A DNA stretch of 64,000 nucleotides from an uncultured cyanobacterium (GTDB lineage Bacteria > Cyanobacteriota > Cyanobacteriia > PCC-9006 > JAAUQQ01). Under the pieces are notes generated by a model. It ran no database searches and was not told the origin of the DNA. It worked only from the letters and a program-made list of their open reading frames with translations. The translations under genes were made by a program, and so were the position numbers. Below, piece after piece: positions 11,744-45,721 of the stretch. Where the stretch lies: contig OY970368.1 of NCBI GenBank assembly GCA_963718615.1, forward strand, positions 4,736,001 to 4,800,000, read 5' to 3'. Each line of letters begins with the position of its first letter. Position 1 is the stretch's first letter.

Positions 11744-12139
11744 ATGCGAATGCTACACACGATGCTGCGAGTCGGGGATCTCGAGAAGTCCCTCCAGTTC
11801 TATTGCGAGGTCCTGGGGATGCAGAAGCTGCGCCAGAAGGACTATCCCGATGGGCGGTTTACGCTGGCGTTTGTGGGCTATGGGGAGGAAGCTAGCCATA
11901 CGGTGATTGAGCTGACACACAATTGGGATACGGATCACTACGACCTCGGCGATGGCTATGGTCACATTGCCTTGGGGGTTGAGGATATCTACGGGACCTG
12001 CGAGGCCATCAAGCAGCGTGGGGGCCAGGTGACGCGGGAGCCGGGGCCAATGAAACATGGCTCGACAGTAATTGCGTTTGTAGCGGATCCGGATGGCTAC
12101 AAGATTGAGTTGATTCAGTTAGGGAGTCGGCAGGGGTAA
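11744..12139 (+). CDS. gloA: Lactoylglutathione lyase (glyoxalase I)
   Basis: [34 protein letters not shown]. Confidence 0.97.
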
Positions 12140-12167
12140 GTTTTTAATCGAGGAGGGGGGCAGACAC

Positions 12168-12228
12168 CGGGTGTTTTCTCTCGGCGAGACCGACTGGCTG
12201 GCCAGTGAGCAAAACACCCGATTTTTTT
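12168..12228 (+). terminator. Stem-loop plus T-tract after gloA
   Basis: CGGGTGTTTT (12168-77) / AAAACACCCG (12211-20) followed by ATTTTTTT. Confidence 0.6.
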
Positions 12229-12536
12229 AAGTGCTAATCGTTATACTTATCAACTGGGCACTTCAATGGGACCACACAGAAATGGAGGGCTCACCAAATC
12301 GGGTATAACCAGCCTAAAACCCTGATTCTTTCGTTGATTTTTGGAATTTATGCAAAATTCTGATCACTCTCGTTATCGTAATAGCCAATTCAATCTTTTT
12401 TATATTTCTAGCTTTTCATAAAGGCATATACAACCTCACTCAAGCGTGAGCACCATTGAGTCACCACTAAGGGCGGAATGCTCCGCCAACAAGCTCTAGG
12501 CTACGTCTCCACAGAGCACTAAAGTTATATAACGCA

Positions 12537-13022
12537 TTAGGCTTTTCTTCCGGCTTCGGGCTCAGAAATATTTTCAATTTCGACAATATTCCATTTAAGC
12601 CCCTTATTTCTATAGATTCTTTTCCTTTGCAAGGGATAGTCACCCACGTCGTGGTCGAGACGCTGCCCAACGACGATGCATTTAAGAATGCGTTCACCGG
12701 TATTCTTCAATAGGTGTGCTTCGCCGCCAGCACGATAGCCAATGAAGTCACCGGCTTTTACTTGGTGTGTGGTTTCGCCAATAATTGCTTCTGCTTCGCC
12801 TTCTAAGATATATACACATTCGTCCTCGTGATAGTGCTTATGCAGCTCAGTTGATTCGTAGCCTGGCTCAATCTCTATGACGTGAAATCCAAATCCGTTC
12901 AGGCCAGTCATATCACCTAGGGATTTGTTCACTCGTCTCGCATTGGGATTAAGGAAATGAGTCTTTCGCAGACCCTCATAAGCGTCGATTTCTTCCTTCG
13001 TGACGATGTACTTTTCCATCAC
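12537..13022 (-). CDS. Cupin-domain protein in an AT-rich segment, probably acquired
   Basis: HKHYHEDECVYILEG and GDFIGYRAGGEAH cupin motifs; AT-rich codon use, no HIP1. Confidence 0.88.
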   Translation of the reverse strand: MMEKYIVTKEEIDAYEGLRKTHFLNPNARRVNKSLGDMTGLNGFGFHVIEIEPGYESTELHKHYHEDECVYILEGEAEAIIGETTHQVKAGDFIGYRAGGEAHLLKNTGERILKCIVVGQRLDHDVGDYPLQRKRIYRNKGLKWNIVEIENISEPEAGRKA

Positions 13023-13634
13023 ATTCCCTAAACAGTCTAACGAATGCAGACTAATGCAGAAAAACCAAAACCTTTAAAAGCAGAAACACCAAGCCAGGGT
13101 TGAAACTAACCATTTCCCATAAATTTATCCAGTTAAAGTGGAGATTCAAATCAACGATTTCGGGTTAATACTGCGAAATCCTGATTAGTTTGCTCCCTCG
13201 GCACTATGGATGGGAAATCCGCCGTTTCGGGCTTGGTGCTACTGCGATCGAACGAGACAGAGTCAAAATCAACAGCGCGTTTACCTCTCTGAGTAGTAAC
13301 TGTTTACGAGCTTGGCTGTTGGTATCTGCCAGACGAGGTCTTTGCCTCATGTCATTACTATAGCGCGATCGCCCCCCTCCCCTTCCCTTCGACATGAAGC
13401 GTAAACTTCAATCCACTCCCTACTCTCTGCAATATTTTCTTTCTTTAACTATCGAAACTTGTTGGTTTAGTCCCTCAGCCTTTTGGCGGAGCCCTTCCGT
13501 CTTTTCGCTGAGCTTAATTCGGCTAAGTCGTGCAAACTTAGTTGGAATTCAAACGATACTTCATCAAAAACCTATTTTGTCCATATAAATGTCTTTTTCT
13601 TGTAAAGCCTCTTGAGCCGAATTACGGTTATGTT

Positions 13635-13928
13635 CTATGGTCATTTCAGTGACTTCACCGATCATTTGGGTTCATCCGCAGGAGACCCTAAGGGACGTTT
13701 TTCCCTTGGCTAAGTCGGTTTTTGCGATCGACAGCTCTATCCTTTCGGCTATGACAAGCTCCCGTTGTAGCCTGATTGATAGCGTCGGTGCGATCGCAGT
13801 TTGAGTTGGGGGTTTTGCATCTGCCGGATAACAGCTTCAAGCGAAGCATGAGTGATGTTCAGTGCTCCTCCGGTTATTTGCAAAAGCTATACATTGGGCC
13901 TTCTCCTGGGGGAGAGGGCTTTTTATTT
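13635..13928 (+). ncRNA. Candidate structured non-coding RNA of unknown family (~290 nt)
   Basis: Nested helices that use G-U pairs on the + strand; candidate promoter TTGTAA-N17-TACGGT (13600-13628); intrinsic terminator at the 3' end. Confidence 0.5.
13896..13928 (+). terminator. Intrinsic terminator on the + strand
   Basis: GGGCCTTCTCC-TGGG-GGAGAGGGCTT followed by TTTATTT. Confidence 0.7.
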
Positions 13929-13931
13929 GCT

Positions 13932-13971
13932 CCAGTCTGATGGTCCCAGTCTGATGGTCCCAGTCTGATGG
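13932..13971. repeat. Tandem 14-mer CCAGTCTGATGGTC (about 3 copies)
   Basis: Seen directly, just past the permease stop codon. Confidence 0.9.
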
Positions 13972-13979
13972 CTCTAGTC

Positions 13980-15044
13980 TTAGCTCCAATAGAAATTGAT
14001 CAACAGCGCCCCCAAAAATACGAGCTGACTAATCAGCACCACCATATAGAAAACAGGACGCGGCTTAAAGACCGATAGCAACAGTCCGACTGCTTTCAGG
14101 TCAATCATCGGCCCATAGATCAAAAAGGCCAGGAGGGAACCGCTGGTGAATGTCCCTGCAAAGGTCAGCACAAAAAAGGCATCTACCGTCGAACAAATCG
14201 AGACGATCGCCGCTAGCAGCATCATCGCCACAATCGAGAGCACCGGACCTTGGCCCAGGCCCAAAATCAGTTCACGGGGGGCAAAAACTTGGATGGAGGC
14301 GGCGATCGCACTCCCCAAGACCAAAATAGACCCCAACTCCCGTAGCTCCTGGATCGTATTGTCCAGAAATAAACTTAGGCGATCGCCCCAGTTTTTAGGC
14401 AGGGTCATCTCGGCGGCAATGACCGACTGATAGGCCAAGGCTTCAAACCGCTGAGCCGAGCTTGCATTGCCCTTGCCTCGACTACCCAGCATGAACGTTC
14501 CCGACTGGAGCAGTGTTGAACTGCCCCCTAAATTCAGGTCACTCGGGCCACCGGCCACAGCTAGGCGACGGCTCGGTTGGGGCTCCGGTAGGGCATTGGC
14601 CAGGGTGGGTTGCAGCAGGGGGCGGAGGTCACGCTGGACACTGAAAAGCCAGCCCAAGAGGGTGGCGATCACCAACGAGCCAAGCACCCGCAACACCACA
14701 ATTTCTGGCTGATCGCGAAAGGCGGTCCAGGTGGCCCAAATCACAATAGGATTCACCGTCGGTGCGGCAAACAAAAAGCCGATCGCCACCGCTGGCGGGG
14801 CACCTTGGATCAGCAGCCGCCTAGCCACGGGGATATTGCCACATTCACAGGCGGGGAATAAAAAACCAACTAAACTTCCCGTTAAGGCTCCGAGCAAGGG
14901 ATTTTTGGGGAACCAGCGCAGGAGCTTGTCCTCATCCACAAAAAACATTAGTGCACTGGAGAACAGCACACCAATGAGCAAAAACGGAAAGGCTTCCACC
15001 AGCAAGCTCATAAAGAGGGTGAAAGCACGGGTAAGTTGTGCCAT
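13980..15044 (-). CDS. Permease, UPF0718/DUF318 (YraQ/ArsP-like) family
   Basis: LVEAFPFLLIG, FPACECGNIPVARRL, SICSTVDAF, GPMIDLK. Confidence 0.9.
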   Translation of the reverse strand: MAQLTRAFTLFMSLLVEAFPFLLIGVLFSSALMFFVDEDKLLRWFPKNPLLGALTGSLVGFLFPACECGNIPVARRLLIQGAPPAVAIGFLFAAPTVNPIVIWATWTAFRDQPEIVVLRVLGSLVIATLLGWLFSVQRDLRPLLQPTLANALPEPQPSRRLAVAGGPSDLNLGGSSTLLQSGTFMLGSRGKGNASSAQRFEALAYQSVIAAEMTLPKNWGDRLSLFLDNTIQELRELGSILVLGSAIAASIQVFAPRELILGLGQGPVLSIVAMMLLAAIVSICSTVDAFFVLTFAGTFTSGSLLAFLIYGPMIDLKAVGLLLSVFKPRPVFYMVVLISQLVFLGALLINFYWS

Positions 15045-15087
15045 AAAAACGAACTGTTAGAGCCGAGACGCGGGCCTCAAAGATAAC

Positions 15088-16191
15088 CTAGAAGCCCATG
15101 GCTTTGGCGACAGCCCCCAGGTCAGATTCGAGACCCGTATGGAAATTAGCCTGATTATAGTCAATGGCCGTGGTCGGATCCTTGAGACCATTGCCCGTGA
15201 GGACGCAGACGATGGTGGATTCGGTAGGAACGCGATCGCGCAGTTTCATCAATCCGGCCACGGAAGCGGCACTGGCAGGCTCACAGAACACCCCTTCTTT
15301 GCTAGCCAACCAGCGATAGGCCTCAATGATTTCGGCATCGGTAACCGCATTAAATTCCCCACTACTTGCCTTGCGGGCCGCGTGGGCCTGGTCCCAGCTT
15401 GCAGGATTACCAATGCGAATGGCCGTTGCCAGCGTATCCGGATTTTGGACCGGACCACCGTGGATAAATGGCGCGGCTCCAGCGGCCTGGAACCCCATCA
15501 TCTGGGGCAATTTCTGGCTGCGGCCCTGCTGATGATATTCGCTGAACCCCATCCAGTAGGCAGTAATGTTACCTGCGTTGCCCACGGGAATACAGAGCCA
15601 GTCCGGGGCCTCGCCGAGGGTATCCATAATTTCAAAGGCCCCGGTTTTTTGACCTTGAATCCGGAAGGGATTGACCGAATTGACCAGCGTCACAGGATAT
15701 TGGTCCGCCACGGCGCGAACAATGTTGAGGGCATCGTCAAAGTTCCCCTTAATCGCCAAAACCTCAGCCCCATACATCAACGCCTGGGCGAGCTTGCCCT
15801 GGGCCACATAGCCGTCGGGAATTACCACGTAGGCTCGCATGCCCCCCCGGCAGGCATAGGCCGCAGCGGCGGCGGAGGTATTGCCCGTGCTAGCGCAGAT
15901 GACGGCTGTTGCTCCGGCTTCCTTGGCCTTTGTCACCGCCATAGTCATGCCCCGATCCTTGAAGCTGCCGGTGGGGTTGAGACCGTCATACTTGACATAA
16001 ACCTGAACCCCACGACCGATGTAGGCTGAAATCGTCGGCACCGGAATCAGCGGTGTGTTGCCTTCATGGAGCGTGACCACAGGCGTGGTGTCGGTCACAG
16101 GAAGATAGGAGCGATAGGCTTCGATCAGACCAGGCCAGCCCTGATAGGTTGACTGAGCTTGGGTGCCGGGGGTGGGGAGCGTTGCAGTCAC
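15088..16191 (-). CDS. thrC: Threonine synthase
   Basis: [16 protein letters not shown] (PLP lysine), [26 protein letters not shown]. Confidence 0.97.
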
Positions 16192-27343: not shown

Positions 27344-27436
27344 CGAAACCTCCGAGAGACCCCGCGCCTTCAGGCCGGGGAGGGATAGGAGCGCGACCGT
27401 GAGGGAGCAATAATTTAGCGGCTCTCACAGTCAATG

Positions 27437-27445
27437 TACTATAAT
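27437..27445. promoter_or_regulatory. Overlapping divergent -10 boxes inside the IS left end
   Basis: + strand TATAAT at 27440-45, 6 nt before the tnpB ATG; - strand TATAGT at 27442-37, facing the MFS gene. Confidence 0.55.
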
Positions 27446-27451
27446 GTGAGA

Positions 27452-28621
27452 ATGACACAAAAGGCATTCCGATACCGCTTTTATCCAACCGCTGAGCAGG
27501 AAGATTTGCTCAGACGGACGATGGGTTGCGCTCGTCTGGTCTACAATCGCGCCTTGGCTGAAAGAACTCAAGCTTGGTACGAACGACAGGCGCGGGTGGG
27601 GTATGCGGAAACCTCTGTCATGTTGACCCTGTGGAAGAAAGAAGAGGAACTCTCCTTTCTCAATGAGGTCAGTTGTGTGCCCCTGCAACAAGGGCTGCGG
27701 CATCTCCAGAAAGCGTTTACCAACTTCTTTGCGGGTCGGGCAAAGTACCCAAAGTTCAAAAAGAAGCGGAATGGTGGCAGTGCTGAGTTTACCAAGTCGG
27801 CGTTTAAGTTCAAGGAGGGTCAGGTGTTTCTGGCCAAATGTTCTGAACCCTTGCCGATTCGGTGGAGCAGGCAGCTTCCAGAGGGTGCTGAACCCTCTAG
27901 CATCACGGTAAAGTTGACGCCCTCGGGGAAGTGGTTTGTCAGTCTGTTGGTGGACGTGGATATTGAGCCATGGCCGGTTAGTCTCCTGAAAGTGGGGATT
28001 GATTTGGGCATCAACAGCCTGATAGCCCTGAGCACGGGTGAAAAGGTGAACAATCCCAAGTCGTTTAGAGCTAAGCACAAACGACTGAAGAAGGCTCAGA
28101 AAGCGTTGGCACGAAAGGAGAAGGGCTCGAACAACCGTTACAAAGCGCGGTTGAAAGTTGCCCAAATCCATGAAGAGATTGCTAATGCCCGCAAGGATTT
28201 CCTTCACAAGCTGACGACGCGATTGGTGCGCGAGAACCAAACGATCGCCATCGAAGACTTGGCTGTGAAGAACATGGTGAAAAACCCCAAGCTGGCGTTG
28301 TCGATTAGTGACGCGAGTTGGGGAGAATTGGTCAGGCAGCTTGAATACAAGTGCGAATGGTACGGCAGGGAACTGGTCAAGATTGACCGTTGGTTCCCCA
28401 GTTCTAAACGCTGCTCCAACTGTGGGCACGTCGTCGAAAAACTGCCGTTGAATATTCGTGCTTGGGATTGTCCGAACTGTGGTGAACATCACGACCGGGA
28501 TATCAATGCTGCTGTGAACGTATTGGCCGCAGGACTTGCGGTGTCAGTCTGTGGAGCGACTGTAAGACCCGAACAGAGTAAGTCTGTGAGGGCAGGTGCT
28601 ATGAAGCAGAAAGCCTCCTGA
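27452..28621 (+). CDS. tnpB: RNA-guided endonuclease TnpB
   Basis: KAFRYRFYPT HTH; RuvC triad GIDLG, AIEDL, DRDINAA intact; zinc ribbon CSNC/CPNC; start taken as MTQKAF. Confidence 0.96.
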   Translation: MTQKAFRYRFYPTAEQEDLLRRTMGCARLVYNRALAERTQAWYERQARVGYAETSVMLTLWKKEEELSFLNEVSCVPLQQGLRHLQKAFTNFFAGRAKYPKFKKKRNGGSAEFTKSAFKFKEGQVFLAKCSEPLPIRWSRQLPEGAEPSSITVKLTPSGKWFVSLLVDVDIEPWPVSLLKVGIDLGINSLIALSTGEKVNNPKSFRAKHKRLKKAQKALARKEKGSNNRYKARLKVAQIHEEIANARKDFLHKLTTRLVRENQTIAIEDLAVKNMVKNPKLALSISDASWGELVRQLEYKCEWYGRELVKIDRWFPSSKRCSNCGHVVEKLPLNIRAWDCPNCGEHHDRDINAAVNVLAAGLAVSVCGATVRPEQSKSVRAGAMKQKAS

Positions 28622-45550: not shown

Positions 45551-45721
45551 ACCGCTCAACGCAGTCTCCCTATCTCCCCCAGGCGTCAAAGGATCGAGTC
45601 AAAGGATCCTTTAGCGCTTGGGGAATTGGGGGGATTGCAAATTCAGTACAGCGCCACTTTAGCTCTAGAATACTGTCCTGGAGTTCAGCAACAGAGCTGA
45701 AAGGCGGGTGGAAGGTTTCTT

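Follow-up and report, generated by a model that had tools for sequence, protein, structure and literature searches.

A hairpin-rich, terminator-bounded segment beside an ArsP-type permease gene as a candidate lineage-specific small RNA of a cyanobacterium

Small RNAs that are encoded between genes and end at Rho-independent terminators include cyanobacterial Yfr1, PsrR1, IsaR1 and NsiR4, and a length of about 280 nt is longer than that of most such intergenic sRNAs. Among the structured non-coding RNAs of a few hundred nucleotides, 6S RNA forms a long irregular rod with a central bubble. Here we analyze a segment of a cyanobacterial chromosome (roughly 13648-13928, + strand) that was predicted to form several stable hairpins followed by an intrinsic terminator, and that might encode a non-coding RNA of about 280 nt, independent of the neighbouring genes and specific to the lineage. 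Unless stated otherwise, positions refer to the window, i.e., the whole 64,000-nt stretch of DNA that was analyzed.

The locus and its history

The source chromosome is complete (6.10 Mb, GC 52%) and cyanobacterial, and it carries 8832 copies of the palindrome GCGATCGC, which we take to be the cyanobacterial HIP1 element. The segment lies in a gap in which no recognisable gene was found on either strand. Its farther neighbours encode enolase, glyoxalase, a PLP-dependent enzyme and CbiX, while the features that matter for the following analysis are these:

12537-13022, - strand: cupin gene (Pfam Cupin_2)
13023-13979, 957 bp: gap between the cupin gene and the permease gene
13932-13980: 14-nt tandem repeat CCAGTCTGATGGTC, 3.5 copies, from just past the terminator to the permease stop codon
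13980-15044, - strand: ArsP_1-type permease gene, convergent to the candidate RNA
27434-28621, + strand: TnpB gene (IS605 OrfB / Cas12f-like TNB), 13.5 kb from the segment

The order of genes at this locus differs from that in other cyanobacteria (loci L090 and L068), where a TIGR03943/DUF1980 partner stands directly after the permease gene. In the present genome the partner is located at 2370996-2371643 of the chromosome, 2.4 Mb from the permease gene. The gap shows no sign of a decayed TIGR03943 gene: the family model has no match in it, and the real gene is present at 2.37 Mb. As well, the full CCAGTCTGATGGTC unit of the tandem repeat has no other occurrence in the genome.

A low-GC stretch extends from about 12200 to 13600. 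The GC content of the cupin gene is about 44-49% and that of the gap 0.385-0.525 (200-nt windows starting at 13000-13800), compared with 52% for the genome. The closest relatives of the cupin (70-79% at the amino acid level) belong to marine gammaproteobacteria and a few scattered, marine cyanobacteria, while genomes of the same family contain only matches of 33-38%. Judged from these sequences, the cupin gene was probably acquired horizontally, and the segment sits in a rearranged and probably partly acquired stretch. Such a locus would be compatible with a young lineage-specific RNA gene and with leftover sequence alike.

Predicted fold, terminator and promoter

The preliminary description of this DNA, made from its letters alone, had proposed a multi-branch structured RNA with its own promoter and terminator. 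The helices, hairpins, second domain, terminator, promoter hexamers and open reading frame that it named are all present where it had placed them, and together with the elements added here they are as follows:

13600-28, + strand: candidate promoter of the preliminary description, TTGTAA-N17-TACGGT (4/6 and 3/6 matches)
13612-41, + strand: candidate promoter from a relaxed scan, TTGAGC-N18-TATGGT (4/6 and 4/6 matches; weak)
13637-13804, + strand: 55-codon ORF with ATG start, overlapping domain 1, judged non-coding
13656-13790, + strand: domain 1, a four-hairpin multiloop when folded by itself
13656-61 / 13785-90, + strand: closing helix CACCGA/TCGGTG (in the standalone fold 13656-62/13784-90, CACCGAU/GUCGGUG)
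13668-88, 13689-708, 13709-35 and 13737-82, + strand: hairpins 1 to 4 of domain 1
13737-13782, + strand: hairpin 4, the most stable local hairpin (16 pairs with bulges)
13811-13887, + strand: domain 2 (13813-85 in the preliminary description), enclosing GCTTC/GAAGC
13896-13928, + strand: intrinsic terminator, an 11-pair stem (13896-13921) with a 4-nt loop, then TTTTTATTT

Folded by itself, domain 1 reaches -51.2 kcal/mol on the + strand (z -3.72, with 1 of 200 shuffles equally good) and adopts exactly the multiloop of four hairpins that had been described. However, this arrangement does not survive in the full-length ensemble (13648-13930), where the closing helix and hairpin 3 (13714-32) each have a mean pair probability of 0.01, because two HIP1-type palindromes (GCGATCG type), 13722-32 and 13789-99, form a helix in their place (p 0.79), which prolongs hairpin 4 into a rod. 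The elements that are robust in this ensemble include hairpin 2 (13689-708; 0.96), domain 2 (0.73-0.97) and the terminator (0.89), as well as hairpin 4 (p about 1.0), which is also the element with the lowest z-score (-4.46, none of 200 shuffles equally good). The apical loop of hairpin 4, AAGCUCCC (13756-63, 8 nt), is C-rich and predicted to be unpaired and accessible. Domain 2 consists of an outer stem UUUUGCA/UGCAAAA, a middle stem GCCGGA/UCCGGU and two small inner hairpins. According to the folding model, the predicted structure owes part of its pairing to HIP1-type palindromes, which are able to pair mutually anywhere.

The complete 301-nt stretch is also more stable than its shuffled versions on the + strand (z -3.32). 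Four control pieces of 135 nt from the same gap (13100-13639, + strand) gave z-scores of -1.82, +0.86, +0.02 and -0.68; these controls are unstructured, and the structure therefore forms a discrete block directly upstream of the terminator (13650-13930).

The terminator hairpin has a free energy of -17.6 kcal/mol on the + strand (z -3.30), and no gene of that strand needs it, in agreement with the preliminary description. The closest co-oriented stop codon is 1781 nt upstream, with a - strand gene between, and the stop codon of the convergent permease gene is 60 nt off. The hexamers of the promoter proposed along with it are sub-threshold, and a standard consensus scan detected 0 promoter-like sites in 12900-14100. 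The alternative from the relaxed scan, TTGAGC-N18-TATGGT, agrees with the consensus at 8 of 12 positions and would place the 5' end of the RNA near 13648, some 8 nt ahead of domain 1.

Coding potential, homologues and known RNA families

The 55-codon ORF had been said to resemble nothing known, and the searches agree with this: it has 0 matches among 1.84 billion representative proteins and no Pfam match. Its codon score of -0.014 per codon is below that of 97% of genuine in-frame 55-codon segments and within the wrong-frame distribution, in comparison with 0.14-0.23 for the genes of the cupin, the permease and the glyoxalase. None of the six further small ORFs in the gap has a better codon score, and all 7 tested fall in the wrong-frame range. 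Moreover, inspection by eye revealed neither a Shine-Dalgarno sequence ahead of the 55-codon ORF nor a clear transmembrane segment in it, and a read-through of the most open + frame, with stops written as X, has no homologue among proteins of 112-357 residues.

A blastn search of the own genome found the segment at its own locus only, i.e., as a single copy, and a DNA search of 40 relatives found 0 homologues. The same DNA search detected the 6S RNA of this genome in 34 of the 40 relatives, with 82-87% identity in 6 of 7 family members, and the candidate accordingly does not belong to the broadly conserved RNAs. Two single-sequence covariance models, one of 135 nt (R1) and one of 77 nt (R2), matched only the own locus within the genome, and among 150 genomes of cyanobacteria, with all 7 family members covered, their best per-genome E-values (0.25 and 0.02, respectively) are at chance level. 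In genome and metagenome collections, no homologue was found beside 160 permease loci (80 + 80; blastn, nhmmer and tblastx) or beside 80 cupin loci, and plasmids and phages gave none either. On 56 of 240 fetched loci, R1 gave one match at E 3.1 and R2 none, and stem-pattern scans of collections of genome contigs and viral contigs gave 0.

A conserved structured RNA family is accordingly not supported, with nothing to align, no orthologous gap and hence no covariation support. These negative searches weigh little against a lineage-specific sRNA, since the genus has a single genome in the set, since the genomes of the family have no permease gene (0/7) and only 33-38% matches to the cupin, and since synteny with the family genome G001 ends right past the glyoxalase gene. 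Of the remaining 47 window ORFs, none has a counterpart nearby in G001.

The segment had not been recognized as tmRNA, RNase P, SRP, 6S, a Cas12k tracrRNA or a riboswitch, and Rfam 15 (4227 models) agrees with this, with 0 matches at gathering thresholds in the whole window. At E up to 10, only sub-threshold alignments appear, namely RF02278 with 17.0 bits (gathering 50) and RF00519 with 13.3 bits (gathering 41), both of which come from the 3' part (13860-13928), where GCUCCUCC is followed by the terminator; no riboswitch or leader family scores at the segment even at this setting. A divergent housekeeping RNA can be rejected, as canonical copies lie elsewhere in the genome, above the cut-offs (6S 95.7 bits, at chromosome positions 1378711-1378894; RNase P 250; tmRNA 128; SRP 57.2). 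A riboswitch or attenuator leader of a present gene was also ruled out, given that no co-oriented gene lies beyond the terminator and the permease gene is convergent.

Mobile elements were considered as well. A TnpB omega-RNA, an IS end or a MITE was ruled out by the single copy, the lack of terminal inverted repeats and the distance of 13.5 kb to tnpB, and no transposase gene is present among the ORFs scanned against Pfam in 5648-27343. The consensus of integron attC sites comprises RYYYAAC ... GTTRRRY core sites 40-130 nt apart; an attC site was ruled out, as no such core pair occurs on either strand of 12100-14060.

Weighing the explanations and comparison with known RNAs

At this locus, stable hairpins are confined to one block, a canonical + strand terminator follows them without a + strand gene to serve, and no coding signal was detected. 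The best explanation, which we hold tentatively and with somewhat less than even confidence, is that the segment (roughly 13648-13928, + strand) represents a stand-alone RNA of about 280 nt that is non-coding and specific to its lineage. Transcription as such, its start site and the function of the product are inferred under this explanation. Three sequencing runs aligned nothing to 12400-15200, which weighs neither for nor against expression.

A functionless relic, although doubtful, is nearly as likely as the small RNA. According to this explanation, the gap would be junk from rearrangement and gene acquisition, the hairpins would be due to chance and HIP1 palindromes, and the terminator would be the leftover of a lost gene or a chance product as well. 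The parting of the permease gene from its TIGR03943/DUF1980 partner, the low GC of the cupin gene and the gap, the relatives of the cupin outside its own family, the stop of G001 synteny and a single-copy segment without a homologue in any search are all consistent with a relic. The ranking of structure also favours it. When the minimum free energies of 300-nt windows of the 64 kb (100-nt steps, both strands) were regressed on dinucleotide content, the candidate window had a composition-adjusted rank of only 19 out of 1276, with several coding regions and the mreB-mreC spacer scoring better. The excess stability of the segment over shuffled sequence is genuine yet moderate and unexceptional.

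The terminator can be read in the same direction. A census of the genome, which counted hairpins at or below -15 kcal/mol with a T-run behind them and used crude ORF calls that make its classes rough, yielded 488 sites, including 166 within 200 nt past a co-oriented stop, 46 at 201-500 nt, 168 within gene bodies and 108 orphans, the candidate's terminator being one of the latter. With so many intragenic and orphan sites, a terminator-like site alone is weak evidence for a transcript end. Against a relic, however, the hairpins cluster immediately before the terminator and the remaining 540 nt of the gap lack structure. Moreover, the terminator is a good one that faces the right way for the structured block, and the searches detected no remnant of an earlier gene in the gap.

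Two other places of the window are recorded here as observations in their own right. The mreB-mreC spacer (45551-45721, + strand) contains a long GC-rich hairpin, and its 300-nt windows are the most structured in the 64 kb, with composition-adjusted z-scores of -3.9 and -3.8. The - strand at 27401-27601, at the TnpB gene (27434-28621, + strand), is also among the most structured windows.

An origin on the opposite strand is unlikely. In that case, the hairpins would belong to the 3' UTR of the permease mRNA or to a permease-cupin intercistronic spacer, where they would act as stabilisers or processing sites, and the hairpin at 13896-13921 would be an imperfect terminator of the permease gene. 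Both flanking genes are indeed on the - strand, the hairpin is about 60 nt past the permease stop, and a spacer between two cistrons (mreB-mreC) also provides the most structured window of the 64 kb. Moreover, the - strand beats its shuffles too, with z -3.16 for the 301 nt, nearly equal to the + strand, and z -4.38 for the terminator hairpin. However, the - strand version of the terminator stem is weaker (-12.1 kcal/mol), and the U-run adjoins the stem on the + strand only. Every domain is also more stable on the + strand and has a better z-score there (-3.72 vs. -2.53 on the - strand for domain 1, and -2.53 vs. -1.99 for domain 2). The preliminary description had pointed to many G-U pairs that work on the + strand only. 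Of the 74 pairs, 13 are of the G-U type, which turns into a C-A mismatch on the - strand, so that the G-U pairs and the per-domain z-scores do favour the + strand, but moderately and less than had been implied.

An orphaned cis-regulatory leader, similar to a riboswitch or an attenuator, whose downstream gene was lost at a junction marked by the 14-nt tandem repeat, is highly improbable. An aptamer-like block that is followed by a second hairpin domain and a terminator is laid out like a transcription-attenuating leader, and the locus is rearranged, with the unique tandem repeat directly after the terminator. However, the segment has no co-oriented gene downstream, none of the riboswitch or leader families scored even at E up to 10, and the covariance models found no homologous leader in 150 cyanobacteria. 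The least probable explanation by our estimate, an mRNA of a small protein that is encoded by the 55-codon ORF or by one of the other small ORFs and perhaps resembles a type I toxin, can draw on an ATG-initiated ORF within the putative transcript and on the length and structure of type I toxin mRNAs, which are similarly long and structured, but it is contradicted by the empty protein and Pfam searches, the codon score, the lack of a Shine-Dalgarno sequence and of a clear transmembrane segment, and the empty whole-frame read-through.

If the segment is a lineage-specific small RNA, the predicted transcript would run toward the 3' end of the permease gene and stop at its own intrinsic terminator, and its most likely action would be base pairing, in cis or in trans. 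In cis, read-through transcripts of the permease gene would be fully complementary to the predicted RNA, because no recognisable terminator separates the permease gene from the cupin gene on the - strand (the scan found no - strand terminator-like site between the permease stop and the cupin start). Convergent transcription or the resulting duplex might then insulate the cupin gene or trigger processing. In trans, the exposed C-rich loop AAGCUCCC may pair with GGAG-type ribosome-binding sites, to which it is complementary. We consider it improbable that the segment is a new lineage-restricted two-domain RNA of about 280 nt that is larger and folded more elaborately than ordinary base-pairing sRNAs and works as a switch, in which domain 1 would adopt either the multiloop or the rod held together by the HIP1-type palindromes.

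The segment falls within the ordinary class of unverified, species-specific sRNA predictions, which sRNA finders yield in large numbers, and it opens no long-standing question. If transcribed, it would add one more species-specific sRNA candidate for a poorly sampled cyanobacterial lineage, and might account for the insulation between a permease gene that has been parted from its usual partner and a cupin gene of probably foreign origin.

Compared with known systems, the candidate is similar to 6S RNA (RF00013) in being a structured non-coding RNA of a few hundred nucleotides; however, it has no RF00013 score, and the true 6S RNA of the genome is encoded elsewhere and conserved in 34 of 40 relatives. 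The Betaproteobacteria toxic sRNA (RF02278) and mmgR/suhB (RF00519) share with it a C/U-rich, anti-Shine-Dalgarno-type GCUCCUCC followed by a terminator, and the candidate carries a second C-rich motif, AAGCUCCC, in an exposed loop. With 17.0 and 13.3 bits against gathering thresholds of 50 and 41, respectively, it is not a member of either family, which are from another phylum, and its CUCCUCC is mostly paired (unpaired probability <=0.16 at 8 of 9 positions). Stabiliser hairpins of intercistronic spacers or 3' UTRs are likewise stable hairpins between co-oriented genes, such as the one in the mreB-mreC spacer of the window, whereas here the flanking genes are not on the strand that the T-run, the G-U pairs and the better z-scores favour. 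Finally, unlike the intergenic sRNAs Yfr1, PsrR1, IsaR1 and NsiR4, the candidate is predicted from sequence, has no Rfam score and is unconserved even within its family, but it resembles them in being stand-alone, non-coding and single-copy, and in its hairpins followed by an intrinsic terminator.
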